NCBI GenBank assembly: GCA_038227875.1
Contig: JBBRPR010000013.1
Span: forward strand, 96,001 to 160,000
DNA length: 64,000 bases
Source: Planctomycetota bacterium
Lineage (GTDB): Bacteria; Planctomycetota; SZUA-567; H5-PLA8
Direction of reading: 5' to 3'
Position 1 is the first letter of the stretch; each line of letters opens with the position of its first letter. Position numbers and translations under genes: made by a program. Shown here in pieces: positions 14,146-33,528 of the stretch. The notes beneath the pieces were generated by a model. It ran no database searches. It saw only the letters and a list, made by a program, of their open reading frames with translations, and was not told the origin of the DNA.

Positions 14146-14331
14146 GGCGCCTCACTTTCCGGGAAATTGAGTTGTCGTTACTACCACACCAGTCCGACCC
14201 CGCGTGCCTTCCGCCCACAAATGGAAAATACAAAAACTGTAAATCTGATAGGTGCACGTGGGCAAAAACGCGTACGAAAATGGATATAATTATATCATAG
14301 GGACTATAGTCCCCATGTTGACTTTTGACCC

Positions 14332-15162: not shown

Positions 15163-15188
15163 GGGGCAGTCTCCAAAAAAGGTGAACG

Positions 15189-16740: not shown

Positions 16741-17805
16741 CTATGACCGGGGGCGGGTCAGCAACGCCTGTTTAAAGCGTTCCAGCAGCTCTTCAGTGTA
16801 GCAGGCCCGCGCCGCACACCGCAGCAGATTGTGCCGGGGCTCTGACGGATATTTGAAGTAAGGCGCGACCAGGCCGAAGGTTACCAGATGCGCGGCCAGT
16901 GCCGCGGCTTCGTGTTCATCTTTGAGCATCAGCGCGACAATCGGCGAATCCGGACAGACTACGCCCAACCCCGCCGTGCGCGCCGTCTCCCGCATGAACG
17001 TAGCGTGTTTCCACATTTTCTCGCGCAGACCGGGCTCAGTCCGCACGATTTCCATCGCCTTAACGCACGCCGCCGAGATCGGTGGCGGCGGCATCGACGC
17101 GCCAGAATTGTGCGACGAACGCCGGTACTGCTCCACGCGTTCGCGGCTGCCGAGCAGGAATCCACCGTTACATCCCAGCGCCTTGCTCATGCTGCCCAGA
17201 ATCACCGCGTCATTGGGCTGCAACCCGCACGCTTCCGCCGCGCCGCGTCCGGATTTTCCCAGCGCGAAAACGCCGTGCGCATCGTCGATGAACAATTCCG
17301 CGCCATGCGCCTTGGCCACGGCATAAAGTTCCTGCAGCGGCGCGACCTCGCCGCTGATGCCGTAAACACCGTCGGTGGCGACAATCGGTGGCGGTCCGGA
17401 ATGCGCGGCAAGCTGACGCTTCAAGTCCGCGGCATCGAGGTGCTTGAAACGCCGGATCGTGAATCCGGCCGACTTCATGCCCATGTACTGATTGGAGTGC
17501 ACCGTCTCATCGCAATAAACGGTGTCAGATTTCGTCCGCGCAACTTCGTAGTACACGGCGCCGCCCAAGTACGTCGCGCCGAGAATACAACTGTCCTCCG
17601 CGCCAAAGTACGCCGCCAGATCGGACTCCAGGCGTGCATGAATTTCCGTCCAGCCCAGCGCCCAGCGGGAGCTCATCGACGACACCCCGTGCCGCCGCGC
17701 GCCCTCGTACATGGCATCCGCCAGGCGCGGATCGCCCGCCAATCCGAGGTAATCGTTTCCAGCGAACGCGGTTTTTCCGGGCGTCAGAGCGATCTGCGGC
17801 GGCAT
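16741..17805 (-). CDS. PLP-dependent alpha-oxoamine synthase family protein (BioF/KBL/SPT/CqsA-like)
   Basis: NDYLGLA, FKHLD, TDGVYGISG, DDAHG and GSMSKALG (PLP lysine) motifs. Confidence 0.85.
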   Translation of the reverse strand: MPPQIALTPGKTAFAGNDYLGLAGDPRLADAMYEGARRHGVSSMSSRWALGWTEIHARLESDLAAYFGAEDSCILGATYLGGAVYYEVARTKSDTVYCDETVHSNQYMGMKSAGFTIRRFKHLDAADLKRQLAAHSGPPPIVATDGVYGISGEVAPLQELYAVAKAHGAELFIDDAHGVFALGKSGRGAAEACGLQPNDAVILGSMSKALGCNGGFLLGSRERVEQYRRSSHNSGASMPPPPISAACVKAMEIVRTEPGLREKMWKHATFMRETARTAGLGVVCPDSPIVALMLKDEHEAAALAAHLVTFGLVAPYFKYPSEPRHNLLRCAARACYTEELLERFKQALLTRPRS

Positions 17806-17886: not shown

Positions 17887-20004
17887 CTACTTCAATTCCT
17901 TCAGCTCCTTCAATACCTTCGCCGCCATTTTCCGAACCTCCGGATCGCCATCGTTCAGCGCCTTCTCAATCCGCTTCGCGGCATTGGCCTCGCCCACGCT
18001 CCCCAGTGCAGCGATGGCCTGGCCTCTCACCTCGGGGCTCTTATCATCCAGGGCCTGCAGCAGCAACTCCTCGGCTTCTGCGTTGCCGATTTCGCCCAGC
18101 GCGTATATCGCGTCGCCGCGCACGGCCGGGTGTGCGTCGCTGCTCAGCCGCTTGAGCAACGCGAGCGATTTTTCGCCGCCGATGCTGCCCAACCCGTAGG
18201 CCACGCCTTCGCGCAGTCGAAAGTCGGGAGATTCCGCGAGTTTCTCAAGAAATGGCAACGCCGGCCAACCGCCACCATGACCGACCGCAGCCGCCGCCGC
18301 ATAACGCACGTCTGGATTGGCATCCGCGCAAGCTTGCTCGACCAGGCGCAGCGCCTCGGCGTTGTACATGTAGCCCAAGGCACACACCAGACTTTGTCGT
18401 TCTCCCGTGGCATCCGCTTTGAGTTCGGACAATCTATTTTGAAAGAGAATCACGTCGCGCTCATCGTTCAGTGCCGCCAATGCCAGGTACGCCTGATTCC
18501 TGACCGCACGATCGACGTCGGGCAGCGTGTCCTTCACCAGCGCTCTGGCTTTTTCGCCGCCGAATAGACCCAGCGCTTTCACCGCTGTCGTACGGACTTT
18601 TGCGTCCGGCGAATGGAGCGCGCGTTCCAGTAGCGGCAGCGTCTTCTCGTCATGGCAACGTCCAATTTCGGAGGAGAGAAAAGGAAAGCCCAGGTTGGCA
18701 TCCTCTTCCAACGCACCCCACACGCCTCCGTCCAATGCCGCGACCGCATCCCAGACCAACGAACGCAATGACGCCAAGGCTGCGCGCTTTACTTCCACAT
18801 CCTTGTCATGAACCGCCTTCAGGATTAGGGGAACGGTGCGCACATCTTCCAGTGTGGCTGCACGCTTCGCCGCATCGCGGCGCTTTGCGGCGTCGGCAGA
18901 TTCCAGATCCGTGCGAAGTTGCGCGATTTCACCATCACTCGCACCCGGAAAGAGCACCGCGGATTTTCCATCCGCCGACCACTGGACTTTCCAGCCGTAC
19001 TTTTGCGCCACACCCTCCACCAACTGTGCGCCCGACGTCCGCGCAAACCGCATCGCGCCAGGCACCAACGGAAATTTCTGGCTACCCAGAACGGAGATCG
19101 ACAAGCCCTGCGCTTGCAATGCCTGAAACGCGACCGACGCCGGCGAACCTATCGGCGCGACATAGAGCGAGGCCGCGAAGACTGAAGATCCACTCGCAGG
19201 TGCAGGCGTCTGAATTTTCAGCACGCCGAACGCCACGGCGCCGCTGAGCGCGCCAGCCAGCACCACCATGGCGACGGCCGTCTTGACCTTCACCCACCAC
19301 ATCGCCTTGGCGGTAGCGTTGGCCAGCAGCGCCACCTTCGCCGACGCCGATCCGCTCGCCACTGCAGCCGAAAGCGCGGCGGCTCCCGCCGGCACCGTAG
19401 TTGTCGCATGTGAGGTCAGCAGCAGACCGAATGCCGCGACCGTCAGTTGCGTGTCGCGCACGCCCAGCTTGCGGCGAAGCGCTTCCAGCCCACGGCGGCA
19501 ATATCCCGCCAAAACATTTCGCGGCACGCCCATCGCCGTCGAGACTTCCTCCTGCGTGCGCCCTTCCAGGTAACAGGCCGCCAGCGCCAGCCGGTGTTTT
19601 TCAGGCAGGGAACTCAGCGCAGCGTCGAGCTTCGGGCTGATGGCTTCCCAGATCGATTCGCTGGCGACCTGACTTTGTCTGGACGAAACCACGTTGCCTG
19701 CCTCCTTCTCCCGAGCCGCGCGCCGCCGCCGTTCACGCAAAACCACCGTCGCCGCGTACCACGCAGAGCGGTGCATCCAGCCGGCCAGATCGTTTTTCGA
19801 AACAAGTTCCGCGGCTTTGCGGCTGAGCATCAGAAAGACCGACTGCATCACTTCTTCCGCTTCACCCGTCTGGCCCAGCACGCGGCGGCAAACGGCCAGC
19901 ACCAGCGCGCCGTGGCGGCGCACAATCTCTTCGAACGCCTGTGGATCACCGGCGAGGTAGGCGGCCAGCAGCTCGCCGTCCGGCTTCATGGACTCATTGC
20001 TCAT
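17887..20004 (-). CDS. ECF sigma-70 factor with TM helix and C-terminal HEAT repeats
   Basis: DGELLAAY...AFEEIVRRHGALV...AEEVMQSVF, region 4, TM AVAMVVLAGALSGAVAFGV, and many D..VR..A..ALG repeats. Confidence 0.9.
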   Translation of the reverse strand: MSNESMKPDGELLAAYLAGDPQAFEEIVRRHGALVLAVCRRVLGQTGEAEEVMQSVFLMLSRKAAELVSKNDLAGWMHRSAWYAATVVLRERRRRAAREKEAGNVVSSRQSQVASESIWEAISPKLDAALSSLPEKHRLALAACYLEGRTQEEVSTAMGVPRNVLAGYCRRGLEALRRKLGVRDTQLTVAAFGLLLTSHATTTVPAGAAALSAAVASGSASAKVALLANATAKAMWWVKVKTAVAMVVLAGALSGAVAFGVLKIQTPAPASGSSVFAASLYVAPIGSPASVAFQALQAQGLSISVLGSQKFPLVPGAMRFARTSGAQLVEGVAQKYGWKVQWSADGKSAVLFPGASDGEIAQLRTDLESADAAKRRDAAKRAATLEDVRTVPLILKAVHDKDVEVKRAALASLRSLVWDAVAALDGGVWGALEEDANLGFPFLSSEIGRCHDEKTLPLLERALHSPDAKVRTTAVKALGLFGGEKARALVKDTLPDVDRAVRNQAYLALAALNDERDVILFQNRLSELKADATGERQSLVCALGYMYNAEALRLVEQACADANPDVRYAAAAAVGHGGGWPALPFLEKLAESPDFRLREGVAYGLGSIGGEKSLALLKRLSSDAHPAVRGDAIYALGEIGNAEAEELLLQALDDKSPEVRGQAIAALGSVGEANAAKRIEKALNDGDPEVRKMAAKVLKELKELK

Positions 20005-21306: not shown

Positions 21307-24003
21307 ATGCGCAAAATTCTGATCGGCTTGGCAATGCTGGCGTTCGCTACGTCGGCTTTCGGAGCCAGCCAGGACTTAAGCCCGCTCATGCCCCCGCCGA
21401 TGGACCAGAAATGGCCGCTGGTTCCCAGCTGCGGCAGCTGTACGTTCGGCTACGCGCTCAAGACATACTACGAGGGCCTCGACCGGGGCTGGAGCGTGCT
21501 GACGCCCAATCACCAGTTCGCGCCGAACTACCTCCACAATCAGGTGCAGTATCAGGAAGGGCTGGGCATCAACGAAGGTGAACGCAATTGCTGGATCATG
21601 GCCAACCGCGGCATTTGCACGCTGGCCGATGAACCGTACACGACCGATCAGCTCACGTGGCCCACCGCCGCGCAATGCCAGGCCGGTTTGAATTATCAGA
21701 ACGACCTGATCGGCGGGCTGCCCTACGGTTCGATCGTGGGCTACGATTCCGTCACCCGCAAACCCAATCTCACCAACATCCGCGCGGCGTTGGACCAGGG
21801 CAAGGTGCTGGGCATGTACTTTGTCTACTTCAACGGTTTTGAGACGCTGAGCAGCGCGACGAATTATGTTTACTACTCCGTCTACCAGAGCGGCACCCAG
21901 ACTTACCATTGGATCACCATCGTCGGCTACGACGACACGCGGACCGACGGCACCGGCCACGTGGGCGCGCTGAAGGTTCAAAATTCATTCGGAGCGACAT
22001 GGGCCGATCACGGCTATGGCTGGATCGCTTACGACGCGTTGAACTACGCGAGCATGCCGGTCGCCAACACGCAGGGAAAATTTTACTACCTGAAAAATCT
22101 GCCCGCGACGTACGTCTCGACCCTTTCAGCGCGCATTTCGCTCAATCATCCGCTCGTCGCCGGAACGCGCATCAGCGTGGGCGTCGGCGACATCGCAGCT
22201 CCGTCCTGGACGCATACGTTCTACGATTTCACTCCCGATTACTTCACCGACCTCGCCGATCCCGTTCACGCCAATTTCTCGACCGTGGTCGATCTCACCG
22301 GCGCCAGCGCGTTCTGGCCGCCGTCGGCAGCCCGGCCGTGGTGGGTCAAAGTCGAAGACCCGTTGACCGATGGCTTGACCGGTACGATCACTGAATTTTC
22401 CGTGACGCAAGGCGGCACAACGTTCTCCACAAAGACGCCGCTGCCGGTCAGCATTCCCGACACCGGATCGGCCTACGCCTACATCTACGGCAATCGCCCG
22501 CCGGTGATCACGTCCGCGATTTCAGCCACGCCCAACCCGGCCAAGGTCGGCCAGACCGTCACGTTCTCTGCCGCCGCGACCGATCCAGACGGCGATGCGC
22601 TGACCTACAGGTGGACGTTCGGCGACTCCGCGACGCAAACCGGCGCGACGACCTCGCACGCCTACGCCGCGCCGGGCGTCTACCCGGTCACCGTCACCGC
22701 CACCGATGGCGGCGGACTTTTCGCGACAACCTCGGCTTCGGTCACCGTCACGGCGCTCGCGACGCCGGTCGTCATCACCACTGCATCGCCGCTGCCCAGC
22801 GGCACCGTGGGCACCGCATACTCGTTGCAATTCACGGCCTCCGGCGGTACGCCGCCGTATCACTGGTCGTCAATCGATCCGCTCGGACTCGGCGCGCTGC
22901 CGCCCCCCGGATTGGTGTTCTCAAACGGCGGCTTATTGCTGGGTACGCCGAAAACCGCCGGCACCTACAGTTTCATGATTGGCTGCAACGACAGCGCCAG
23001 CGGCAGCGCATCGGCCACCGTTACGATCACCATCAACTCCGCGCCCGTCGCGCCCTCGATTCAGACGCAGCCGTCGAACGCCACCGTGATCGCCGGACAG
23101 ACCGCGACCTTCAGCGTCGCTGCCACGGGAACAGCGCTCACCTATCAATGGTTCCGCAACGGCGTCAACATCGCCGGCGCAACGGGTGCGTCGAATACCA
23201 CGCCGGCGACCACGGTCACGGATAGTGGTTCCACCTATTACGTCGTCGTGAAAAATACCTTGGGCAACGTCACGAGCGCCACGGCCACGTTGACGGTCAA
23301 TCCGGCGGTACAACCCGTCACGATCACCACCGTCTCTCCGCTGCTCAGCGGCACCGTGGGCTCGGCCTACCGCTTGCAATTTACGGCGACGGGAGGTACG
23401 GCGCCGTATCAATGGTCGTCGATCGATCCACTGGGGCTTGGCGCGTTGCCTCCGCCCGGCATGCTCTTCTCCACCGGTGGTCTGCTTTTGGGAACTCCGA
23501 AGACCGCGGGCACATACTCGTTTATGGTCGGTTGCCGCGCTTCGTCCGGTGGTTCGGCCACGGCCACGGTTACGATCACCATTAACGCCGCCAAGCCGCT
23601 CACTGTTACTGCTCTTCAGGGCAGCGTGAGCTTCGTGGCGAGCGGACGCGACACCGCTTCCGTTTCCGGCACGATTCCCGGATCGTCACTGCTTGCCACG
23701 AACGGCCAGTCGATCAGTTTGAATCTCGGTGGCGTCACGCAGTCCTTTGTGCTGGACGCGAAGGGGCATGGCAAGTCGGCCAACGGCATCGCCACAGTTT
23801 CGACCAAAGGCGGCCGCACGACGTTTACCGCGAAGCTCCACTCGGGCTCGTTTAAAGAAGCGTTTGGTCTCAGCGCATCGCACACGTCGACCAAGTCCCG
23901 GACGACGCTGACCGTCTATCTCGAAGTGGGCGGAGAAACCTATGCGTCAGACGTAAACGTGTCGTGTCTGACCAAGACGAGCGGCGGAAGTTTTAAAAAG
24001 TAG
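21307..24003 (+). CDS. Secreted papain-like (C1) cysteine peptidase with PKD, Ig-like domains and a C-terminal domain
   Basis: Signal peptide; DQ...SCGSCTFGY (Cys), HWITIVGYDD (His), QNSFG (Asn); PKD YRWTFGD; two He_PIG-like Ig domains and one immunoglobulin domain. Confidence 0.82.
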   Translation: MRKILIGLAMLAFATSAFGASQDLSPLMPPPMDQKWPLVPSCGSCTFGYALKTYYEGLDRGWSVLTPNHQFAPNYLHNQVQYQEGLGINEGERNCWIMANRGICTLADEPYTTDQLTWPTAAQCQAGLNYQNDLIGGLPYGSIVGYDSVTRKPNLTNIRAALDQGKVLGMYFVYFNGFETLSSATNYVYYSVYQSGTQTYHWITIVGYDDTRTDGTGHVGALKVQNSFGATWADHGYGWIAYDALNYASMPVANTQGKFYYLKNLPATYVSTLSARISLNHPLVAGTRISVGVGDIAAPSWTHTFYDFTPDYFTDLADPVHANFSTVVDLTGASAFWPPSAARPWWVKVEDPLTDGLTGTITEFSVTQGGTTFSTKTPLPVSIPDTGSAYAYIYGNRPPVITSAISATPNPAKVGQTVTFSAAATDPDGDALTYRWTFGDSATQTGATTSHAYAAPGVYPVTVTATDGGGLFATTSASVTVTALATPVVITTASPLPSGTVGTAYSLQFTASGGTPPYHWSSIDPLGLGALPPPGLVFSNGGLLLGTPKTAGTYSFMIGCNDSASGSASATVTITINSAPVAPSIQTQPSNATVIAGQTATFSVAATGTALTYQWFRNGVNIAGATGASNTTPATTVTDSGSTYYVVVKNTLGNVTSATATLTVNPAVQPVTITTVSPLLSGTVGSAYRLQFTATGGTAPYQWSSIDPLGLGALPPPGMLFSTGGLLLGTPKTAGTYSFMVGCRASSGGSATATVTITINAAKPLTVTALQGSVSFVASGRDTASVSGTIPGSSLLATNGQSISLNLGGVTQSFVLDAKGHGKSANGIATVSTKGGRTTFTAKLHSGSFKEAFGLSASHTSTKSRTTLTVYLEVGGETYASDVNVSCLTKTSGGSFKK
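22774..23586 (+). repeat. Two near-identical ~88-aa Ig (He_PIG-like) domains inside the protease
   Basis: ITT.SPL.SGTVG.AY.LQFTA.GGT.PY.WSSIDPLGLGALPPPG..FS.GGLLLGTPKTAGTYSFM.GC occurs at ~22774 and ~23323. Confidence 0.85.
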
Positions 24004-24151
24004 CACACCAGAACTTCCGTTTAATACGGAGAGGGCACAATTTACAAAGCATTATCAGCAATGATATTGCGCGCCAAAAGGCGCGCATTTTTGTTTCCCA
24101 AGACTCCCTATTTGCACATGTTCCTTCCGCTCTGATAAAAGTCCGTCGTAC

Positions 24152-24192
24152 ATTTTTCAAGAATCTTCCGCCCAACTTTCAATCGTCTCGGA
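24152..24192 (+). promoter_or_regulatory. Conserved upstream motif of ECF copy B (putative ECF promoter)
   Basis: ATTTTTCAAgaaTCTTCCGcCCAACTttcaATCGtcTCgGA, matching the motif upstream of copy A. Confidence 0.6.
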
Positions 24193-24247
24193 ATAACCTT
24201 TCAGAGCAGCAAAGAATGTTGGCTGCCTGGCGTCCGGTGAGACTACA

Positions 24248-25717
24248 ATGGCCGTCCGAGTTTCAAACCTGGCTGGTGCGACCGCGATGGAAACGATGGA
24301 CGACATTTCGTTGCTGAAAGCCATCGCCGAACGGCGGGATCACGCGGCCTTCGCGGAACTCTGCGAGCGCTGCCACAAACGCGCCTTCAATCTCGCCTTT
24401 CGAATTCTGCGCAATCCGGCGGCAGCCGAAGATGCGGTTCAAGAAGCCATGCTCGCGGTCTGGCTCTCGGCAGGTTCGTTTCAGCCGGACCGGGGAAACC
24501 CACAATCGTGGATACTGAGTATCGTGATGAATAAATGCGTCAACTTAGGGGCCGCTCAGCGACAACGCGCCAAGCGCGAGGAGCGTCTGGCCATGGAACG
24601 AAGCAGTCTGGAGTCCGAATCCACATCCCGGATTGAAGACCGGGAGTTGATCGTCACGCTGCGCAGTCACCTCGACCGGTTGCCGGATCTGGACGGCCGG
24701 ATCCTGGCGTGCTGCTACGGCGCCAACATGTCGCATCAGAAGGCCGCGGAATTTCTGGGCATCCCCCGGCGCACGGTCTCCGAGAAGATCCAGCGCGCGC
24801 TCGATTCCCTCCGCGGCAGCCTGTTGAAGGCCGGTGTCGCCGCGGTGGTGCCGCTGCTCAGCGCCGAGAATCTCTTTGAAGCCATGACCACCGGCCACGA
24901 ATGCCCGCCCGGCATGGGTGAACGGATTGTCCGCCACGTCACGTCGGCGGGACGCTCCGCGCGCGCCTTGCCGCGCCGTCCGGTCCCCGCGAAGGGCGGC
25001 ATCGGCATGTTCCTGGCTGTCGGCGCGGTGGCCGCCGTCGCCGTAGGCGTCGTTGCCAGCCGCGGCTATTTCACGCCAACCCCGAATTCCGCCGCGCCGA
25101 CTCTCGCTCCCGCCCCGGACGCGCTGCATCTCCATTGGTCGTTCGAGAAGGAAGCACCTGCCGATCTGCGCGTGTTGCAGCAAAGTTGGACGTGGAAGTA
25201 CTCCGAGGAAAAGAAGACTGGCTACCTCGCCACGCCGTCCGGCGAATCGAACGCCGTCTTCGTGACTCTGCCCTTCACGCTTCCGGCGCAGCCGGTTCTG
25301 ATCCACTCGGAAGCTTTTCTGCCGCTGGAAGGCGTGTTTGCGCTGAGCGCCATGCCGATGCGAGGCAACCAGGTTCTGCCCACGGTACGCTGGCGCACGT
25401 TCTATAATTTGCGCGGAACCACCGTGTCCAGTCTGCAAGTCACGCATCACAGCGACATCTACATTGTCGATCACCACATCGTCCAGTTGCTGGACGGTCA
25501 TGTGATGGAAATCCGGATTGTCCCAGAAGCCGCAACCTCGATCGCACTGGGCATCCGCAATTGGGGCCTGCTGAGCATGGATGTCAAAACCATCAGCCCG
25601 GCGGACCTGCCCGCTCCGCTCAAGGATGTTCCGGCGTTGATTCTAACGATGAAGGAAGGGCCCGAAAAAGAAAACGTGCCCGGCGATCCGCCGCCCAGGG
25701 AGCCCGTCCGTAACTGA
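24248..25717 (+). CDS. ECF sigma-70 factor with C-terminal extension (TM plus extracytoplasmic domain), copy B
   Basis: Clear paralogue of 15189..16655 (AFAELCER, AEDAVQEAMLA, CCYGANMSHQ, GHECPP); TM MFLAVGAVAAVAVGVVA; C-domain starting LHWSFE. The start could be 24287 or 24296. Confidence 0.88.
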   Translation: MAVRVSNLAGATAMETMDDISLLKAIAERRDHAAFAELCERCHKRAFNLAFRILRNPAAAEDAVQEAMLAVWLSAGSFQPDRGNPQSWILSIVMNKCVNLGAAQRQRAKREERLAMERSSLESESTSRIEDRELIVTLRSHLDRLPDLDGRILACCYGANMSHQKAAEFLGIPRRTVSEKIQRALDSLRGSLLKAGVAAVVPLLSAENLFEAMTTGHECPPGMGERIVRHVTSAGRSARALPRRPVPAKGGIGMFLAVGAVAAVAVGVVASRGYFTPTPNSAAPTLAPAPDALHLHWSFEKEAPADLRVLQQSWTWKYSEEKKTGYLATPSGESNAVFVTLPFTLPAQPVLIHSEAFLPLEGVFALSAMPMRGNQVLPTVRWRTFYNLRGTTVSSLQVTHHSDIYIVDHHIVQLLDGHVMEIRIVPEAATSIALGIRNWGLLSMDVKTISPADLPAPLKDVPALILTMKEGPEKENVPGDPPPREPVRN

Positions 25718-25830
25718 TTAACCGCCCGCCGCCGCGGGAAACAAAACAACAGGGAATAGAACAGGAAAGACACCGTGCGTGTGCTTGATGGAGCCTCATT
25801 GTCCCGCGTTTTCCAAACTAAGGAGCCGCC

Positions 25831-26523
25831 ATGTTCCAGTCGCAGAGTGAAGACGTGCGTACGTTACCGAAGTCCTCGAAGATTTCGCAGGCCTTGCGCG
25901 CCATTCAGCCCAGCGCGATCGGAACCGCCGAAACCGAAAACGTGGCCGAGCCCGAGGTCATCATCCGTCCGATTCTCGGCGAGCACGAACTCGATCGCGT
26001 CTATCAACTGACCTACGACGCCTACGTCGAACGCGGGTACTGCGAAGAACACCCGTCGCGCCGGCTGATTCATTATCCGCATCTCGACCGTATCCCCGAG
26101 ACCACGGTCCTGGTCGCGGTCGTGGACGGCAAGATCGTCGGCACCAATTCCTGGACCTTGGACGGGCCCAATGGTCTCCATGTGGACAAGGATTTCCATG
26201 CGGAGACCCGCGTCGTGCGCAGCGAAGGCCGCCGCCTGGCCGCGTCCTGGCGTATCGCCACTTCAAGTTGCTTCCGGGCCGAACGCAAAGTGGTCATGGC
26301 GCTGATTCAGCAGACCTGCCAGGGAATCGTCGCCGCCAACGTGGACACCTCGATCTTCACCTTCAACCCACGGCACGAACGCATTTATCAGCGCCTGCTG
26401 AACATGAAGACCATCGCGACCAGCGCGGGCACCAACGGTCTGCGCAATGCGCCCGCCGTGTTGATGCGCCTGGACCTGAAGGACTTGCCGGAACGCTGGC
26501 TGCAGCCCATGTCCGTCGGTTGA
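25831..26523 (+). CDS. N-acyl amino acid synthase (FeeM-like), copy B
   Basis: LTYDAYVERGY, GTNSWTLDGPNGL, NPRHERIYQRLL and NAPAVLMRLD motifs; AAGGAG RBS. Confidence 0.78.
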   Translation: MFQSQSEDVRTLPKSSKISQALRAIQPSAIGTAETENVAEPEVIIRPILGEHELDRVYQLTYDAYVERGYCEEHPSRRLIHYPHLDRIPETTVLVAVVDGKIVGTNSWTLDGPNGLHVDKDFHAETRVVRSEGRRLAASWRIATSSCFRAERKVVMALIQQTCQGIVAANVDTSIFTFNPRHERIYQRLLNMKTIATSAGTNGLRNAPAVLMRLDLKDLPERWLQPMSVG

Positions 26524-26654
26524 TGAGAATTTAAAACATTTCTTTGGTCAAACCGGGCGCAGCTGGTTTTGCATAGTGGAAGACAGTCGTAACTCACGTT
26601 TTAGATCGGGAGTCGCCAGGAAACGCACAATGTAGTTCAACGGAGCCGTTCATC

Positions 26655-27608
26655 ATGCCCAGCAGCGCGGTTTTCGAATACGACAACGCCTTCGCCCGCA
26701 ACCTCGGGTTGGTCAACGTTGATGAACAGTCCCGCCTGCGCCAGACCCGCGTCGGCTTGCCGGGACTAGGCGGCGTCGGCGGTGCGCATCTGCAGGCGCT
26801 GGCCCGCATGGGCATCGGGGCGTTTCATCTCGCCGATCCGGATACGTTCGACGTCGTCAACATGAATCGCCAGCTCGGCGCGTCGATGAACACCGTCGGA
26901 CGCTCCAAGGCGGAAGTCGTCGGCGAATCCTTGAAGACCATCAATCCCGACGCGCAGGTCGAACTCTTCCGCGACGGCATCAACGCACAGAACATCGATG
27001 CTTTCTTGGATGGCGTCGACGTCGTCGTCGATGGACTGGAGTTCTTCCGCATCGAAACGCGGCGCATGCTCTACCGCGCCTGTCGCGAACGCGGCATTCC
27101 GGTCGTCAACGCCGGCCCGATCGGCTTTGGCGCGGCAGTGCTGGTCTTCATGCCCAACGCGATGTCCTTCGACGAATACTTCCGCATCAACGACGCGATG
27201 ACCCGCGCCGAACAGTTGCTCGCGATGGCGCTGGGACTGGCGCCCGGCCTGGTCAGCGATGTCGATCCCGCGCGCGTCGACGTGGAGAACGAGAAGGGCC
27301 CCGCCCTCGCATCGGCCTGCTTTCTCTGCGCCGCCGCCGCTGCGACGGAAGTGCTCAAGCTGGTCTGCGGTCGAGGACGGGTCACCGCCGCGCCGCGCGG
27401 CATCTACTACGATCCATATCGCGGCAAAACCGTCCGCCTCCGCCCGCGACCCGCGTTGACCTCCAGCCTGCGCGGCCGGGTCCTGCGCTGGATGAGCTTC
27501 CGCCGCTTTCCCGCTTTCCGCACCATGCACGAGCGTGAATTGCTCGAGCGCAAAAACATTCGCCAGCTGGATCTCGAGGCTGCCTCCCATGCCGCGCCAA
27601 CGGTCTGA
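26655..27608 (+). CDS. ThiF-family adenylyltransferase, copy B
   Basis: AFARNLG, GLGGVGG, ADPDTFDVVNMNRQ, KAE and VVDGLEFF motifs; no CxxC pairs. Confidence 0.9.
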   Translation: MPSSAVFEYDNAFARNLGLVNVDEQSRLRQTRVGLPGLGGVGGAHLQALARMGIGAFHLADPDTFDVVNMNRQLGASMNTVGRSKAEVVGESLKTINPDAQVELFRDGINAQNIDAFLDGVDVVVDGLEFFRIETRRMLYRACRERGIPVVNAGPIGFGAAVLVFMPNAMSFDEYFRINDAMTRAEQLLAMALGLAPGLVSDVDPARVDVENEKGPALASACFLCAAAAATEVLKLVCGRGRVTAAPRGIYYDPYRGKTVRLRPRPALTSSLRGRVLRWMSFRRFPAFRTMHERELLERKNIRQLDLEAASHAAPTV

Positions 27609-27843
27609 AAAAGAAGTCGATGAACTGATCGCGCTCGCGCGCACGTACTGCGAAATTCGCGCGCGATTGAACGATGCCCCTGCCGATTGGCCGGCCGACG
27701 AACGCACGCGCGCGCACCTCGCCCAGCTCGACGAGAAAATCGCGCTGCTGAACAGCTACAGCGAGCTGGACCGCAAGAAGGCCCGCGCCATCCGCAACAC
27801 CAACATCGTCCAATTGCATCGCACCCGGAGGGCGGCCCGATGA
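27589..27843 (+). CDS. Small (84-aa) helical hypothetical protein inside the operon
   Basis: GAGG RBS; overlaps the ThiF end; its TGA overlaps the nitroreductase ATG (ATGA); high-GC3 codon use. Confidence 0.65.
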   Translation: MPRQRSEKEVDELIALARTYCEIRARLNDAPADWPADERTRAHLAQLDEKIALLNSYSELDRKKARAIRNTNIVQLHRTRRAAR

Positions 27844-28910
27844 ACGTCATGGAATGCATTCCGCACGTGGCCGCGCCGACACTGCAAAAATGCCTGGCCG
27901 CCGCCGTGCGCGCGCCGTCCGGCGACAACACACAGCCCTGGCGTTTTGAAACGGATGACTCCGCTGGACGCATTTCCGTATTCATCGACGAAACGCGCGA
28001 TTCATCGCCGATGAACTGCGGGCAGACCATGTCGCGCATGGCCTGCGGCGCGGCGGTGGAAAACATCCTGATCCAGGCCGCCGCGGATGGCTGGGCCGCC
28101 TCCGTGGAAGAAGGCTTCGGCAACCACGTCGCCACGATTCAGCTCGATCAGGAATCGCCGCTGAGCCCCGTCACCCGCCAGACGCTGAACGCCATATACA
28201 ATCGCGTCAGCAACCGCCGCCTTTACGACGCCAGGCCCGTGGATCCGCTTGTGCTCTCCACGCTGAATGAATCGACCCCGCTCCTCGACGACGTCCGCAC
28301 GCATTGGTGCACCGAACGCAGCCGCATCAACACGCTTGCGCCGATCATTGGCGCGGCCGACGGCATTCTGTTTGGCGAAAGTTCAATGCGCAATGCCTTC
28401 CTCGCCAACGTCCGCTTCGATCGTCCGGTGAATGAAGAAGTCGACTCCGGTCTTTCGCTGGCGTCGCTGGAGCTCTCCCTGCCTGACCGCGCCGCCATGC
28501 GCATGATGAGTCATATTCCCAGCGTGGTGCTGAAAGCCACCGGCGCTTCGCGTCTCTTCAACCTGCACGCGCGGAAGCTGATCAAGAGCGCCTCCGGCGT
28601 TTGCGCGATCTCTGTTCCAGAAGCACACACGTCGTATTTCCAGGCCGGCCGAGCCCTCCAGCGGGCATGGCTGGTGCTCACGGAACTGGGCTTCGCCGTG
28701 CAGCCGATGATGTCCCTAATGGTCTTGCTGAATGCACTGCATCACGGATCGTCGCAACTGAAGGTGGCACTAGGCACTAAGCGGATAATTGAATTAGCAG
28801 CACAATTTGACACAGCAATTCCGGAATTCACCTGCAGAAAACCCCTGTTCCTGCTACGCTTTGGATACGCCAAATCACCGAGCGGACGGACAGGGCGATT
28901 GCAACCATGA
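27840..28910 (+). CDS. Nitroreductase-superfamily FMN oxidoreductase (Acg/Rv1355c/OxzB C-terminal-like)
   Basis: AVRAPSGDNTQPW, RVSNRR, GRALQRAWL...GFAVQP and RFGY motifs; GGAGG RBS before ATG 27840. Confidence 0.85.
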   Translation: MNVMECIPHVAAPTLQKCLAAAVRAPSGDNTQPWRFETDDSAGRISVFIDETRDSSPMNCGQTMSRMACGAAVENILIQAAADGWAASVEEGFGNHVATIQLDQESPLSPVTRQTLNAIYNRVSNRRLYDARPVDPLVLSTLNESTPLLDDVRTHWCTERSRINTLAPIIGAADGILFGESSMRNAFLANVRFDRPVNEEVDSGLSLASLELSLPDRAAMRMMSHIPSVVLKATGASRLFNLHARKLIKSASGVCAISVPEAHTSYFQAGRALQRAWLVLTELGFAVQPMMSLMVLLNALHHGSSQLKVALGTKRIIELAAQFDTAIPEFTCRKPLFLLRFGYAKSPSGRTGRLQP

Positions 28911-30052
28911 TGAGTATTGGATGGCGGAATTTGAAGCGCGATCCCTGGCGCGCGGCCGTCGCCGTGCTCGGGGTTGTCTTCGCTGTCGTCCTGGTCACTG
29001 TCGAAGTCGGCATGCTCATGGGCCTCGTCCGCAACGCCTCGCTCCTGATCGATCAATCTCGCGCCGATCTCTGGGTCTCCACCGTCGATGTGAAAACCTT
29101 CGACTTCGCCACGCCCGTGGACAACCGCAAGCGCTACCGCATCGCGGCTGTTCCCGGCGTCGATCATGTCGAAGAATTCAATGTCACCTACAGCGTCTGG
29201 AAATTGCCCAGCGGCGGAAACGCCAACTGCCAGGTCATTGCCCTCGACGAACACGGCACCCTCGCCCCGCCCTTGAACCTGATCGAAGGCAGTGTGGAAG
29301 CGCTGCACAACCAGGACGCCGTAATCATCGATAAAGGCGACTGCGCCAAGCTGGGCAACATCCACGTCGGCGACACGGTTGAAATCCTCGAACGCCGCGC
29401 CAGAGTCGTCGGGCTGACGCAGGGCATGAGTTCCTTCACCACCACGCCGTATATTTTCACGTCTCTGCGCCGCGGCGAGCGCTACGGATACCTGACTTCC
29501 GATTCCGGTTCGCCCAGCGGCAAGCAGTCGATTTATTTTCTGGTCAAACTCAGTCCCGGCGCCGATCTCGAAACCGTCCGCAATGCCATCACCTCGGGAA
29601 TTCCCGGCGTCGAAGTTCACACGCGCGAGAGCTTCAGTTACCGCACGCGAAAGTATTGGCTGATCGAGACGGGCGTGGGCCTGGGCTTCCTGGCCGCGGC
29701 CGTGCTGGGCTTGCTCGTCGGCGGCGTGATCGTCTCGCAGATTCTTTACGCCATGACCATGGAAAAACTCCCCGAGTTTGGCGTGATGAAAGCGCTCGGC
29801 GCGGGCATGGGTGAAATCTCCCGCGTCGTCCTCGACCAGGGCCTGATCTGCGGCGGCGTCGGGCTGGTCATCGGAATCGCCTGCAGTTATGGCATCGCCG
29901 CGGCGGCAGCGGCGGCGGGAACCACGGTTGAAATTCCCACTGGACTGCTCATCGGCGTTTCGGTGATCACCGCATTGCTGTGTACGTTTGCGTCCCTGTT
30001 TTCAATTCTCCGCTTACGGCGCGTCGAGCCGGGGATGGTGTTCCGCACATGA
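28907..30052 (+). CDS. ABC exporter permease (FtsX/MacB/DevC-like)
   Basis: N-terminal TM, periplasmic domain, three C-terminal TMs, EFGVMKALGA; ATGA-coupled to the previous gene. Confidence 0.9.
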   Translation: MMSIGWRNLKRDPWRAAVAVLGVVFAVVLVTVEVGMLMGLVRNASLLIDQSRADLWVSTVDVKTFDFATPVDNRKRYRIAAVPGVDHVEEFNVTYSVWKLPSGGNANCQVIALDEHGTLAPPLNLIEGSVEALHNQDAVIIDKGDCAKLGNIHVGDTVEILERRARVVGLTQGMSSFTTTPYIFTSLRRGERYGYLTSDSGSPSGKQSIYFLVKLSPGADLETVRNAITSGIPGVEVHTRESFSYRTRKYWLIETGVGLGFLAAAVLGLLVGGVIVSQILYAMTMEKLPEFGVMKALGAGMGEISRVVLDQGLICGGVGLVIGIACSYGIAAAAAAAGTTVEIPTGLLIGVSVITALLCTFASLFSILRLRRVEPGMVFRT

Positions 30053-30795
30053 CCCCCACAATCTCGGTGCGCTCCGTCTCCAAGCACTACGCAGGCGGCG
30101 AATCCTGGGCCGTCCGCGGCATCTCGCTCTCCGTGTTTCCCGCTGAAGTCACCGTGCTGATGGGACCCTCGGGCAGCGGCAAGACAACGCTGCTCTCCAT
30201 GATCGGCGGCGTCCTTACGCCCACCGAAGGCTCGCTCAGTGTCTGCGGCGTGGAACTCAGCGGCTGCGACGAATCGCAATTGCAGAGCTTCCGGCGCGGC
30301 CAGATCGGTTTCATTTTCCAGAGCTTCAATCTGCTCTCGTCGCTGACCGCGCTGGAAAACATTGAACTGGCGCTTTCCCTGCGCGGCAAAGGACCCTCGA
30401 CTGCCGCGGAACTGCTCGACCATGTCGGCCTGGCCGCCAAAGCGCAGGCGTATCCGATGGAACTGTCCGGCGGACAGCGCCAGCGCATCGGCGTCGCACG
30501 CGCGCTGGCCGGCGATCCTCCGGTGCTCCTGGCCGACGAACCGACCGCCGCGCTCGATGCCTTTCAAGGCCGCCGCGTCATGGATCTGCTCCGCACCCGC
30601 GCCCGTGAATCCGGCACGACGGTGCTGGTCGTCACGCACGATCCGCGTGTCCGTGAATTCGCCGACCGCGTGATCGAGATGGAAGATGGAAAACTCAAGC
30701 GCATCGTCCGCCGCGTGCGGCCGGAGCAGGCTGAGGATGGGCAGTGGTTGGTTTCCCGAACCGGCACGATTGTAGCCGAGACTGCGAGCACCTGA
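30049..30795 (+). CDS. ABC transporter ATP-binding protein (LolD/DevA-like)
   Basis: GPSGSGKTT, LSGGQRQR, LLADEPT and VTHD motifs; ATGA-coupled. Confidence 0.93.
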   Translation: MTPTISVRSVSKHYAGGESWAVRGISLSVFPAEVTVLMGPSGSGKTTLLSMIGGVLTPTEGSLSVCGVELSGCDESQLQSFRRGQIGFIFQSFNLLSSLTALENIELALSLRGKGPSTAAELLDHVGLAAKAQAYPMELSGGQRQRIGVARALAGDPPVLLADEPTAALDAFQGRRVMDLLRTRARESGTTVLVVTHDPRVREFADRVIEMEDGKLKRIVRRVRPEQAEDGQWLVSRTGTIVAETAST

Positions 30796-32441
30796 TGGCC
30801 AAAGAGGCCAAAGAACCCTCCGAGTCCACCCCTGCCGCCGCCCCCCAGGCTGCCGCCCATGATCTCATGGACGCGGAAGCGGCTCGTCAGCTCTTGAAAA
30901 TGCCGGCGGCCAAGTTCGAATTGCTCATCTCCACCGGACAGGTACGCGTCTTCCGTTCCGACGGACAGCCGTGCTTCCGCCGCGAAGACATTGCCGCGCT
31001 GGCCTTGAAGCGACAGGCCGCGCCGGCCAAGAGCGCCGCACCGCGCAAAGTTGCTCCGCCTGCGGCTGCTCCCGCCGCACCGGGCGCATCTGCCGCGAAA
31101 TCCTCTCCGCGCAGTGAAGCCGTGAAACCGCCGGCGTCCAAGGCCACTCCTTCCATTCCCAAGCCTTCTGAACCCGACGATATGGAAGAGGAGGAATTTG
31201 AAGAACCGCCGCCGCCCGCGCCGCGCCAGAAATCACGCGCCGTCTCGCGGTTCCTGTTGCCGGCCGCGATCGTGATCGCGATCATCGCATTCGCCTGGAC
31301 CTTCAACACCGCCAGCAAACACAGCGAGCTGCCGATGGCAGTACCGCCGCCCGCGCCGGGAGCTTTCGCCAATTCGAAGGCGGCACCGGGGCTGATCGAA
31401 TCCGTCTCTGGCGAACGCCCGCTCTCCTTTGAGGTAGGTGGAAAAATTCACGCCGTCCTGGTCGAAGAAGGCCAGTCCGTGAATGTCGGCGATACGATCG
31501 CTGAGCTGGAAAACGCGGACCTGAACGCGAAGCTGAAATCCAGCCAGGCCGATTTAAGCGCCGCCGAGGCGAAGCTGGGCATGCTCAATGGCAATCTCGA
31601 GAGCGATCTCAAGAAATCCGAAAGCGAAGTCGCACGGTTGAAGGCCGAAATACTCCTGCTCGAACCCCGCAAGGAAGACATTGAGCGCGCGCGCGCCGAA
31701 ACGGCCGCAACCGAGGCCGACTGCACGCGCCTGACTGAGGACGCCAAGCGCAACGCCGACATCCATGCTCAGAATACGGGAGCGGTGCCGCAGCAACTCG
31801 TCGATCAGACGAAACGGCTCGCGGAAGCAGCCGCCGCAAAATGCAACGCCTCGAAAGCCCAGCTTCACGCTCTGGAAGCCGGTTCGCGTCCCGAGGAAAA
31901 GGATCGTCTCAGTGCCATGCTCGCGAGCGCCGAAGCCGAAGTCTCCCGCCAGAAAACCACCAGCGCGTATCAAATCCAGTCCGTTCAGGCGCAGGTTGAT
32001 CAGTCCAAAGCGCAAGTCGAGCTGGTCAAGGCCGACCTGCAGAAGACGCGCATCGTATCGGCCAGTTCCGGCACGGTGGTGCGGAAGTACATGCATCCCG
32101 GCGAAGTGATTGATGCGCTCCACCCGCAACCGGTGGTCACCGTTGCCGACCTGACCCAACTGCGCGTCCGCGCCGATGTCGACGAAGCGGACTTTCCGGG
32201 CATCTCCGTCGGTCAGCGCGTGAAGATCACCGCGGACGCCTGGGAGGAAGGAAAATTCCTGACTGGAGTTGTCGAACGCATCAGCACCACCACCGGACAG
32301 AAGCGCTTCTCCACCGGCGAAGCCCGCGAGAAGATGGACATCAAGATCGTCGAAACGATCGTGAAGTTCGACGCACCGCCGCCACCCAAGCTCGTCAAGC
32401 TCAACCTGCGCGTCACCGCCTACTTCGAAATCTCGAAGTAA
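30795..32441 (+). CDS. HlyD/DevB-like periplasmic adaptor with an N-terminal HTH_17-like domain
   Basis: TGATG coupling; TM FLLPAAIVIAIIAFAW; lipoyl halves GKIHAVLVEEGQSV and SGTVVRKYMHPGE; coiled coil; N-terminal LMDAEAARQLL...GQVRVFR...FRREDI. Confidence 0.88.
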   Translation: MAKEAKEPSESTPAAAPQAAAHDLMDAEAARQLLKMPAAKFELLISTGQVRVFRSDGQPCFRREDIAALALKRQAAPAKSAAPRKVAPPAAAPAAPGASAAKSSPRSEAVKPPASKATPSIPKPSEPDDMEEEEFEEPPPPAPRQKSRAVSRFLLPAAIVIAIIAFAWTFNTASKHSELPMAVPPPAPGAFANSKAAPGLIESVSGERPLSFEVGGKIHAVLVEEGQSVNVGDTIAELENADLNAKLKSSQADLSAAEAKLGMLNGNLESDLKKSESEVARLKAEILLLEPRKEDIERARAETAATEADCTRLTEDAKRNADIHAQNTGAVPQQLVDQTKRLAEAAAAKCNASKAQLHALEAGSRPEEKDRLSAMLASAEAEVSRQKTTSAYQIQSVQAQVDQSKAQVELVKADLQKTRIVSASSGTVVRKYMHPGEVIDALHPQPVVTVADLTQLRVRADVDEADFPGISVGQRVKITADAWEEGKFLTGVVERISTTTGQKRFSTGEAREKMDIKIVETIVKFDAPPPPKLVKLNLRVTAYFEISK

Positions 32442-32472
32442 CGCGAGTTGTGAGTACAGCTTCGGAAAACTC

Positions 32473-32507
32473 AAAAAAAGCGGCGGATTTTCTCTGCCGT
32501 TTTTTTT
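32473..32507 (+). terminator. Intrinsic terminator ending the module B operon
   Basis: A-tract, GCGGCGGA/TCTGCCGT stem and long T-tract. Confidence 0.8.
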
Positions 32508-32622
32508 GTATCACCGCCTCCGCACCTCAAATTACAATTAAAGGGGCACCTTCCGACTGCCGATAATGTTCACGACGGTCAAACGTTGAACTTACGGCAC
32601 GTTGCGAAAGGACGAGCGCCCC

Positions 32623-33528
32623 ATGAACCGACTCTGTTCGTTTTTGAAGCCCTGGACCATTAACGCCGCCCGGGTTGGCCTGGTGGGACTGCTGCTGGCT
32701 GGCGTCACCGGCTGCGACAAGGACGATCAGGACGGGCCTGTTCCCGCCTCCTCGACCAAGGTCATCCCGACGCGACCCGAAGCACTAAGCCTTGCGCGCC
32801 AGGACATCAGGGCCGGCAACGGTCCCAGCGCTCAACAGCGCGTCGAAGCATACCTGAAAGAAAATCGGACCACGCCGTTCCGCGCGGAAGCCGAATACCT
32901 GCTCGGCCAGGCCTTCACCACGCAGGGCGATTTCGACACCGGCAAGAAGCATCTGGAAATCGCCATCGACGAAGCGCAGGATCGCGATCTCAAGGCCTTC
33001 GCCATGCTCGGCCGCGCCAACTGCAATATGGAAATGAAGGCTTACCACCTCGCCAGCCGCCAGTACCACTGGCTGGAAACGATGTACCGCGACGTGAAGG
33101 GTTTGCCGCAGGACGAAATCATGTTCAAGCTCGGCCTCTCCTCCAAGCGCGCCGGAGCTCCCGAAACCGCCGACTACTGGTTCAACCGCGTGATTGAACT
33201 TTACGCCACCGGCCCGTACGCCGAAGACGCCAAGCGCGAGAACTCCAAGTACACGCCCTCGAACTCCAGCGATAAGCCGCTGGTCTACTCGCTGGAATTC
33301 AAGAATTACAATGATGAAAAGAAGGCCAACGAAGAAGCCGATATTCTCCGCGCCAAGGGCTACCGCGACGTGGAAGTCATCCCGACGTCACGCAATGGTT
33401 TCGCGACGTGGGAAGTCCACATCGGCAAGTTCTACAATAAGAACGACGCCCAGCTCGCCAAGACCGACGCCGATCTCGCCGGCCTCGACACGCACATTCG
33501 CCCGGCCATCGTCGAACCGATGAAATAG
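32623..33528 (+). CDS. Lipoprotein with TPR repeats and a C-terminal SPOR-like domain
   Basis: Lipobox AGVTG|C; TPR (AEYLLGQA, IMFKLG); C-terminal LRAKGY...WEVHIGKF SPOR-like pattern. Confidence 0.75.
   Translation: MNRLCSFLKPWTINAARVGLVGLLLAGVTGCDKDDQDGPVPASSTKVIPTRPEALSLARQDIRAGNGPSAQQRVEAYLKENRTTPFRAEAEYLLGQAFTTQGDFDTGKKHLEIAIDEAQDRDLKAFAMLGRANCNMEMKAYHLASRQYHWLETMYRDVKGLPQDEIMFKLGLSSKRAGAPETADYWFNRVIELYATGPYAEDAKRENSKYTPSNSSDKPLVYSLEFKNYNDEKKANEEADILRAKGYRDVEVIPTSRNGFATWEVHIGKFYNKNDAQLAKTDADLAGLDTHIRPAIVEPMK

Follow-up and report, generated by a model that had tools for sequence, protein, structure and literature searches.

The stretch of DNA analyzed here, referred to below as the window, comprises 64,000 nucleotides from a Planctomycetota bacterium. 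It contains a compact locus in which three enzymes related to those of acyl-oxazolone synthesis are encoded together with a putative membrane-bound regulator and an ABC exporter (all positions are those of the window). The eight genes of this locus lie on the plus strand, and for all but one of them Pfam and NCBIfam return a named family. The first gene (24248..25717) codes for an extracytoplasmic function (ECF) sigma factor of 489 amino acids (aa), as judged from Pfam, NCBIfam, hydropathy and an AlphaFold2 (AF2) model. It is followed by the genes for a FeeM-type synthase (NAS) of N-acyl amino acids, 230 aa long (25831..26523; PF21926), a stand-alone ThiF-like adenylating enzyme/cyclase of 317 aa (26655..27608; PF00899 at E 1.4e-47, NCBIfam and tree), an orphan protein of 84 aa that belongs to no family and was delineated by synteny and AF2 (27589..27843), and a nitroreductase-superfamily flavin-dependent oxidase of 356 aa (27840..28910; NCBIfam) that is TyzC/FDO-like and is abbreviated NTR below. 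The last three genes encode a DevC/MacB-type ABC permease of 381 aa with MacB_PCD and FtsX domains (28907..30052), a DevA-type ABC ATPase of 248 aa (30049..30795; ABC_tran, E 1.1e-31) whose ATG overlaps the permease stop codon, and a DevB/HlyD-type membrane-fusion adaptor (30795..32441; HlyD_3, HlyD_D23 and Biotin_lipoyl_2), for which a GTG at position 30744 offers an alternative start.

We read the gene junctions base by base. The genes for the ThiF-like protein and the 84-aa protein overlap by 20 nt; an ATGA is common to the junctions between the 84-aa open reading frame (ORF) and the NTR gene, between the NTR and permease genes and between the permease and ATPase genes, and the ATPase and adaptor genes meet in a TGATG. 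By these overlaps we regard the 84-aa ORF as translationally coupled to ThiF and NTR, and the exporter genes as translationally coupled to those of the enzymes. Intergenic gaps separate the sigma factor gene from the NAS gene (113 nt) and the NAS gene from the ThiF gene (131 nt). Folding of the DNA downstream of the adaptor gene revealed an intrinsic terminator on the plus strand (32472..32508; an A-tract, a 16-pair hairpin and T8) that a consensus terminator scan had missed; with a dG of -20.9 kcal/mol and a z of -5.35, it was equalled by none of 200 shuffled sequences, and we take it as the right border of the operon. The left border is formed by a terminator-like hairpin with a T-run on the same strand (24068..24087; an 8-pair stem with 7 GC pairs and a TTTTTGTTT tail), which closes the upstream PKD/peptidase gene. 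The initial annotation of this DNA had described eight co-directional genes with overlapping ends from ThiF onward and a single terminator; the family assignments and strand check, the base-level reading and the folding bear this description out. The neighboring genes, which encode a PKD/peptidase C1 protein, a hypothetical protein and a sulfatase, are unrelated to the locus, and a search of positions 23900-32700 against Rfam gave no match at E <= 0.1.

Predicted biosynthetic enzymes of the locus

The NAS was recognized by the PF21926 model with 117.4 bits (cut-off 27; E 6.8e-34), and its sole NCBIfam match was to the N-terminal acyltransferase part of PRK14852, at positions 37-201 of 989. On this NAS-ThiF-NTR model, the ThiF-like protein and the NTR of the window occupy positions 312-578 and 610-797, and on PRK14851, a ThiF-NTR model of 679 positions, the same two proteins align at 22-275 and 322-668. 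Since known fused families contain counterparts of all three proteins as successive domains, these matches provide Rosetta-stone-type support for their joint action. They also support the homology of all three enzymes to the oxazolone pathway that had been proposed when the locus was first annotated.

The ThiF-like protein scored best on NF006077 (PRK08223) with 356 bits (cut-off 266), followed by PRK14851 (293 bits) and PRK14852 (234 bits); the best MoeB/ThiF-type model gave 98.8 bits and that of TcdA 78.4 bits. The GxGxxG, DxD, NRQ and K columns of the ATP site are invariant among 42 homologues. For a phylogenetic comparison, we built a quick IQ-TREE tree of 75 rows, in which the fused proteins were trimmed to their first 330 residues, two metagenomic homologues (L040 and L088) were excluded for internal stops, and TcdA, E1, TyzB and OxzB were not among the rows. 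In this tree, 25 MoeB/ThiF-type rows split off at 100% SH-aLRT. On the opposite side of that branch stands the ThiF-like protein of the window, together with 14 ThiF-NTR fusions, 26 split forms and all planctomycetal rows. Its own clade (100%) has nine rows, among them three paralogues from the same genome, three syntenic relatives and two sequences from metagenome contigs, and the fused state requires two to three changes on the tree. As judged from its sequence, the protein belongs with the ThiF part of the fusions to nitroreductases and not with MoeB/ThiF. A grouping with MoeB, TcdA or E1, which the initial annotation had named as a refutation of its proposal, was not seen: the tree sets the protein apart from MoeB at 100% SH-aLRT, with TcdA at only 78.4 bits in the model comparison and TcdA and E1 outside the tree rows.

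The NTR matched the Rv1355c family model NF005901 with 170.9 bits over positions 367-712, the oxidase half of that model, and PRK14851 with 161.5 bits; the Acg family (FDO-B) model gave 135.6 bits, under its cut-off of 199. Its flavin-site (FMN) motif APSGDNxQPW is invariant in nine homologues, and its best model alone places it as a putative member of the FDO-A subgroup. Among solved structures, which include no entry for TyzB, TyzC or OxzB to compare with, the best match of the ThiF-like protein was TcdA (E 1.1e-18) and that of the NTR was Acg (2ymv; E 4.7e-08).

The best named homologues of the ThiF-like protein come from metagenome-assembled genomes of Planctomycetota. Used as a single-protein query against genome contigs, the protein found only two loci; a profile scan of metagenome contigs yielded 80. 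An NTR match lies behind ThiF, in the same orientation, in 24 of these 80 loci and ahead of it in two; in 14 of them ThiF and NTR share one open frame of 653-691 aa. Five of the 14 fusions were scanned, and all five match PRK14851 at 647-1040 bits, their ThiF halves scoring 342-395 bits on PRK08223. Separate ThiF and NTR genes are found, e.g., in L039, L040, L046, L062, L065, L044 and L073. A FeeM-like gene is present in 16 of the 80 loci, 13 of which have it immediately upstream of ThiF and in the same orientation. In L040, the ThiF-NTR pair directly follows DevC- and DevB-like genes. The ThiF homologues of L040 (2551-3588) and L088 (9992-10720) have an in-frame stop inside the tblastn match, which could point to a pseudogene, an error in sequencing or a different genetic code.

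We also considered nine FeeM-bearing open frames of 743-862 aa as candidate NAS-ThiF-NTR fusions, and none of them contains a ThiF or NTR domain. Six of the nine join FeeM to other enzymes: a B12-binding radical SAM protein (L029, L031 and L032), a FAD_binding_4 oxidase (L034 and L035) and part of a GT28-like glycosyltransferase (L028). The loci L028-L035 with such frames belong to four other planctomycete genomes (G021, G049, G056 and G060) with 19-34 FeeM matches each.

Several published systems can be compared with this enzyme set. Mycobacterium tuberculosis makes C12:0-tyrazolone with the products of three separate genes, TyzA, TyzB (ThiF homologue of 318 aa) and TyzC (oxidase of the nitroreductase superfamily, 372 aa), and the membrane transporter gene mmpL9 adjoins them (PMC10404671). 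The window shares with TyzABC the encoding of an NAS, a ThiF-like protein and a nitroreductase-fold oxidase by separate genes; likened here by description and by models, TyzABC differs from it in phylum and gene order and lacks the ECF sigma factor, the DevCAB-type pump and the 84-aa ORF. The same three activities are predicted for the window as for OxzAB, the oxazolone synthetase of Pseudoalteromonas rubra (bioRxiv 10.1101/2020.06.11.147165; PMC12596934), and for TrzAS (Rv1356c/Rv1355c), in which Rv1355c (TrzS) is a ThiF-oxidase fusion making N-acyl tryptazolones, and in that study acid destroyed the tryptazolones (PMC12856293). The NTR of the window matches the oxidase half of the Rv1355c-family model, and its ThiF-like protein is 43-51% identical to the ThiF half of the 14 metagenomic fusions with an OxzB-like layout and a FeeM-like gene upstream. 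In OxzB and TrzS, ThiF and oxidase form one polypeptide, whereas in the window they are products of two genes with a third between them. Since the ThiF gene ends with a TGA at 27606-27608 and a conserved 84-aa gene in another frame precedes the NTR gene, the locus falls outside the fused class.

Within the Planctomycetota, Stieleria neptunia and S. maiorica possess NAS, stand-alone ThiF and nitroreductase genes, as do Thalassotalea and Massilia (PMC12479983). The clusters of Stieleria, Thalassotalea and Massilia yield secreted N-acyl dehydrotyrosines, and no oxazolone was observed among their products (PMC12479983). As these relatives release N-acyl dehydrotyrosines and no oxazolone, the end product of the locus studied here may likewise be a ring-opened acid. 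The window resembles these systems in its split enzyme genes, in the several NAS paralogues per genome and, for Stieleria, in phylum. Clusters of the Stieleria type carry methyltransferases, a DegU-like regulator and resistance-nodulation-division (RND) pumps, the latter two being recorded for S. maiorica (PMC7293339, Supplementary Table 3); in contrast, the window has a lectin-type ECF sigma factor, an ABC pump of the DevCAB type and no methyltransferase. The proposal that the locus represents a split OxzB is hence supported by homology in that ThiF and NTR are separate genes, but it does not hold as a novelty, given that TyzABC and the Stieleria, Thalassotalea and Massilia systems are already split. 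The core of the locus is a member of a pathway already known; what goes beyond print is the lectin-type sigma factor, the link to DevCAB and the 84-aa ORF.

Sigma factor, exporter and 84-aa protein

The sigma factor contains regions 2 and 4 (Sigma70_r2, E 3.7e-15; Sigma70_r4, E 9.6e-09) at residues ~34-192, followed by a linker, one hydrophobic, predicted transmembrane span at ~246-275 and an extracytoplasmic domain at ~290-489. Residues 276-489 match no Pfam family. Among 1.84 billion proteins, a search with this C-terminal domain retrieved only 76 representatives at E <= 0.001; with few exceptions these are proteins of 470-530 aa with the match at the C-terminus, and Sigma70_r4 is present in 51 of the 65 that were aligned with it. 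We found no Pfam match to a zinc-finger (ZAS) anti-sigma domain in the protein at E <= 0.01, and the 65-row alignment contains no near-invariant Cys or His. The AF2 model of residues 276-489 is an all-beta sandwich (pLDDT 92.1; pTM 0.86). Foldseek returned 31 PDB matches at E <= 0.001 for it, led by the lectin domains of galactocerebrosidase, calreticulin and ERGIC-53 and the galectin-like 1oq1. A structural search independent of Foldseek ranked 3zr5_A first (Z 11.4, root-mean-square deviation (rmsd) 9.9 over 168 residues), before 2w68_A, the lectin domain of a Vibrio sialidase (Z 10.7, rmsd 3.6 over 151), and 1oq1_A (Z 10.0, rmsd 3.2 over 155), with CBM66, DUF1080, GH16 and PL7 folds next. 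We read the modeled domain as a ConA-like lectin/glucanase fold facing outward, an assignment at the level of the fold that does not imply a ligand.

The closest described architecture is that of group ECF52. Its members, e.g., SCO4117 of Streptomyces coelicolor, combine a sigma factor, a zinc finger, a membrane span and a carbohydrate-binding module, and control secondary metabolism (PMC5826349). ECF52 is recorded from Actinobacteria only, with a proline-rich spacer, and proteolytic release has been proposed for it (PMC5826349). In both cases one protein unites sigma regions 2 and 4 with a membrane span and an outer domain of the carbohydrate-binding type; the sigma factor of the window differs in that no zinc-finger domain or proline-rich spacer was detected in it, and its outer module is another, unclassified ConA-like one. 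Our survey of the literature found no paper joining ECF sigma factors with N-acyl amino acid synthases, and the main text of the ECF re-classification paper makes no mention of acyl or ThiF.

We asked for a sequence motif shared by the upstream regions of the sigma genes. An AT-rich Gibbs motif lies 68-124 nt upstream of the start in 12 of 15 ECF-lectin genes of the genome to which the window belongs, with an information content of 14.9 compared with 11.9-12.7 in shuffled sequences. In a scan with a position weight matrix (PWM) built from it, a promoter-like element upstream of ThiF on the plus strand (26526..26555) scored 20.9, and its resemblance to the sigma-gene motif may serve as a lead only. 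A different short element, (A/C)TGG(A/T)G..C(A/G/T)CATTGTC(C/T)C, occurs ~20-30 nt before the start of three NAS genes that follow full-length lectin-type sigma genes: in the window at 25790-25830, and in the same genome (G000) on contigs C49 (~11880-11912) and C89 (~12995-13030). This element may represent the -10 region of a promoter or part of a leader.

The permease, the ABC ATPase and the HlyD-type adaptor are encoded in one operon by genes with overlapping ends. Their best NCBIfam models are DevC (TIGR01185; 117.4 bits, cut-off 290.35), the DevA family (TIGR02982; 232.1 bits, cut-off 295.8) and DevB (TIGR02971; 95 bits, cut-off 129). DevBCA is the heterocyst glycolipid exporter. The window shares with DevBCA and MacAB a MacB_PCD/FtsX permease, a separate ATPase and an HlyD-type adaptor, and differs from them in its sub-cut-off scores, a long N-terminal extension of the adaptor and the lack of a TolC-like partner in the locus; by these scores the exporter is Dev-like rather than a DevBCA equivalog. 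The predicted cytoplasmic extension of the adaptor is Pro/Ala-rich and ~160 aa long, and one transmembrane span follows at ~164-190. Within residues ~1-165 (30795-31290), a stretch that resembles by eye an excisionase/MerR-type helix-turn-helix precedes the Pro/Ala-rich linker; it is 46% identical to the orthologue in a related genome (G004), and a Pfam scan found nothing in it.

The 84-aa protein has homologues encoded between ThiF and NTR in two related genomes (G002 and G004), upstream of NTR on C49, after ThiF on the metagenome contig L041 and, as a third copy in the genome of the window, between NTR and DevC on C89. The gene is missing from otherwise complete cassettes in a third relative (G001), on C105 and in the second cassette of C49. 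Among 5.8 billion proteins, the family amounts to 15 clusters of 82-95 aa, all unnamed or annotated as hypothetical, and Cys21, Glu59 and Ala83 are invariant in 16 aligned sequences. AF2 predicts three helices (pLDDT 73). Pfam gave chance-level rows only, the best Atlas score was 0.79, which is under the meaningful level, and Foldseek found no matching fold (best E 0.57). We rejected the notion that the ORF is the remnant of a fusion linker, its profile being unmatched in the 14 fused proteins (best E 2.5); likewise, none of 7999 scored candidates carried it fused into a longer protein at E <= 0.001, which is weak evidence. The 84-aa protein is a real, rare, orphan helical protein, and the position of its gene next to NTR and DevC suggests an accessory subunit.

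Recurrence of the gene set

To follow the gene set beyond the window, we used the NTR as a query against 41 related genomes, that of the window included, and counted matches at E <= 1e-20. Four genomes had a match: the genome of the window itself and three of 16 others from the same family, compared with none of 24 further out. In these three relatives (G001, G002 and G004), each from another genus of the family, ECF, NAS, ThiF, NTR, DevC, DevA and DevB occur together; the gene order is that of the window in G001 and G004, and in G002 the ECF-NAS pair follows DevB. NTR, DevC, DevA and DevB are contiguous in all three and in the cassettes on C49 and C89, and on C9 the DevCAB genes follow ThiF and NAS in a cassette that lacks NTR. 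Since the gene set recurs in three other genera of the same family, it is more than a chance assembly. Conservation of the set, on which the initial annotation had staked its proposal, is thereby found, with the exporter and the sigma factor traveling with the enzymes.

The genome of the window (9.34 Mb in 176 contigs) contains 19 FeeM matches above the cut-off, and among its 137 ECF-like open frames 15 show the complete sigma-membrane-lectin architecture. Thirteen of these 15 ECF-lectin genes lie within 3 kb of a FeeM gene. Conversely, 12 of the 19 FeeM genes have an ECF-lectin gene within 3 kb, which is about 50-fold above the chance expectation of ~1.2%, and 17 have any ECF-like frame within that distance (chance expectation ~10.6%). 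Paralogous cassettes add ThiF on C89, C51, C105, C17, C9, C49 and C86, NTR on C49 (twice), C105 and C89, and parts of DevCAB on C9, C49, C89 and C64. The C-terminal domains of the sigma paralogues are only 23-28% identical. Several cassettes of this genome have an extra short ECF-like frame beside the NAS gene, besides the long lectin-type sigma gene (C88 19799-20386, C49 12804-13166, C89 13963-14541, C67 35803-36840 and C64 16096-16719).

FeeM was found in 34 of 401 sampled genomes of the phylum, and five genomes of five families have 19-34 FeeM matches each. The 6.6-Mb genome G004 contains at least 61 full-length sigma-lectin matches, with 178 weaker matches outside these 61, and 23 FeeM matches; the sigma family thus exceeds the NAS family there. 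Coordinates compared by eye place an ECF-lectin gene within 3 kb of 15 of the 23. Tandem arrays of three or more sigma-membrane-lectin genes lie on contigs C11, C93, C112, C114, C131 and C183 of G004 (e.g., C11:129375-134068, C131:33636-39758 and C114:16700-22567).

A probable make-and-export unit and its alternatives

We consider it likely that the locus is a self-contained unit that makes and exports a lipoamino acid of the Tyz/Oxz type under the control of a dedicated membrane sigma factor. By analogy with the characterized enzymes, the FeeM-type synthase would N-acylate an amino acid, probably an aromatic one, from acyl-CoA or acyl-ACP; the stand-alone ThiF-like protein would adenylate its carboxylate with ATP and close the oxazolone ring; and the nitroreductase-fold flavoenzyme would introduce an alpha,beta double bond using O2, so that the product may be an N-acyl oxazolone, the N-acyl-2,3-dehydroamino acid formed from it by hydrolysis, or both. 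The coupling of the genes suggests that this amphiphile is driven out across the envelope by the tripartite ABC pump of the DevCAB/MacAB-like kind, and their linkage suggests that the sigma factor, tethered to the membrane by one helix with a lectin-like beta-sandwich outside, acts as a dedicated switch. When a ligand from the exterior is bound, a glycan being the most plausible candidate, the sigma domain would be released or activated, and it would then transcribe the NAS gene and the ThiF-to-DevB operon. The 84-aa helical protein might, as a guess, serve the split ThiF/oxidase/exporter set as an accessory subunit.

Several observations weigh against this interpretation. In S. neptunia the NAS encoded in the cluster is dispensable, and an NAS encoded elsewhere in the genome did the work (PMC12479983). 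The ThiF-like protein and the NTR were placed via NCBIfam models and unnamed metagenomic fusions, not by the named TyzB, TyzC, OxzB or TrzS sequences. The structural Z scores of 8-11 for the outer domain of the sigma factor are just moderately above background, and a lectin-like fold reveals no ligand. The PWM is weakly specific, in that 737 of its 768 sites, mostly in AT-rich DNA, have no cassette gene downstream. All three Dev matches remain under the curated cut-offs of the heterocyst proteins, and an outer-membrane factor is absent from the locus. Finally, most of the ~61 ECF-lectin genes of G004 do not adjoin any NAS gene.

Of the other explanations, the one that survives best, although we judge it unlikely, is an autoinducer loop in which the acyl-amino-acid product and not a glycan is the ligand of the outer sigma domain, so that sigma factor and synthase would form LuxI/LuxR-like pairs with positive feedback and private channels. 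FeeM-type synthases share their fold with acyl-homoserine-lactone synthases (PMC10404671), 12 of the 19 NAS genes in the genome of the window form one-to-one pairs with a sigma gene, and the divergence of the paralogous C-terminal domains is as expected for diversified specificity; moreover, the dedicated exporter would bring the product outside, where the sensor sits. However, the nearest folds of the sensor bind sugars, not lipids, and about three quarters of the G004 sigma genes have no NAS neighbor.

We hold it to be quite unlikely that the locus is a loose neighborhood in which the enzymes make the lipid and the sigma factor, the pump or both have other functions, for instance in general envelope stress or drug efflux. 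Such an arrangement would fit the Dev-model scores, the many ECF-lectin genes of G004 without an NAS neighbor and the use of a DegU-like regulator and RND pumps instead in the S. maiorica cluster (PMC7293339). Against it stand the overlaps of 1-4 nt that tie the pump genes to the enzyme genes, the retention of the gene set in three other genera (with ECF-NAS after DevB in G002) and the ~50-fold excess of sigma-NAS linkage over chance.

Two further readings assign the 84-aa protein the role of a substrate. FMN dehydrogenases of the nitroreductase superfamily occur in pathways for peptides made on ribosomes and modified after translation (RiPPs). ThiF-like enzymes are known from such pathways as well (PMC12596934), and a small ORF between both enzymes, beside an ABC/HlyD exporter, might be taken for a precursor that they modify, in the manner of thiazole/oxazole-modified microcins, and that the pump exports, the NAS being incidental. 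This is very improbable: there is no YcaO or other cyclodehydratase among the eight ORFs, the NTR has its best models in the Rv1355c/TrzS family and PRK14851 and no SagB-type match, the ThiF-like protein is of the PRK08223 type, and the ATPase and the permease have no peptidase domain; the 84-aa protein itself is conserved from end to end, with predicted helices, a single Cys and no core rich in Cys, Ser or Thr, and its gene is missing from the otherwise complete G001, C105 and second C49 cassettes. The idea that the ThiF-like protein adenylates the small protein, as MoeB and ThiF do with MoaD and ThiS, and that no oxazolone is made draws on ThiF family membership, the small gene directly after ThiF and the invariant Cys that invites a thioester, but MoaD and ThiS have a beta-grasp fold and a terminal Gly-Gly, whereas the 84-aa protein is predicted to be helical and 4 of its 16 homologues lack the last one or two residues, and such sulfur-carrier or E1-type chemistry is very improbable, given that the ThiF-like protein reaches 356 bits on the oxazolone-type model, that no MoeB/ThiF model exceeds 98.8 bits and that the tree splits it from the MoeB-type rows at 100%.

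The make-and-export unit may be extended, with considerable doubt, to a modular circuit: the pairing of lectin-type sigma factor and NAS would sense a surface glycan and have a tailored lipoamino acid secreted, and it would be multiplied and diversified in some Planctomycetota such that each copy pairs a different external cue with a different product. The 84-aa Cys-bearing protein would then be the obligatory partner that joins ThiF and oxidase to DevCAB and passes the hydrolysis-prone oxazolone straight to export. Behind this tentative picture stand the copy numbers: the genome of the window has 15 sigma factors and 19 synthases, that of the sister genus ~61 and 23, and four genomes, each from a further family, have 19-34 synthases.

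Among bacterial lipids, acyl-oxazolones and N-acyl dehydroamino acids form a young class, which has been connected with the resistance of M. tuberculosis to stress and with the remodeling of biofilms by Stieleria. The literature on these lipids that we consulted names no dedicated sensor-regulator and no proven exporter. The locus and its paralogues propose both, with a one-component membrane sigma factor carrying a lectin-like sensor as the putative switch and a tripartite ABC pump as the putative exit. Some Planctomycetota carry dozens of such synthases and may hence be a rich, as yet unexploited source of pathways for lipoamino acids.

The window itself contains a second cassette on the minus strand (13327-16655). 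It consists of genes for an ECF sigma factor of 488 aa (15189-16655), whose C-terminal part is unlike the lectin type, a divergent ThiF-like protein (14332-15162; only 107.9 bits on PRK08223) and a synthase of the FeeM family (13327-14145; E 1.8e-35). Upstream of this cassette is a gene for an aminotransferase (16741-17805), and a minus-strand gene for a 705-aa ECF sigma factor fused to a long HEAT-repeat C-terminal region (17887-20004) adjoins it.

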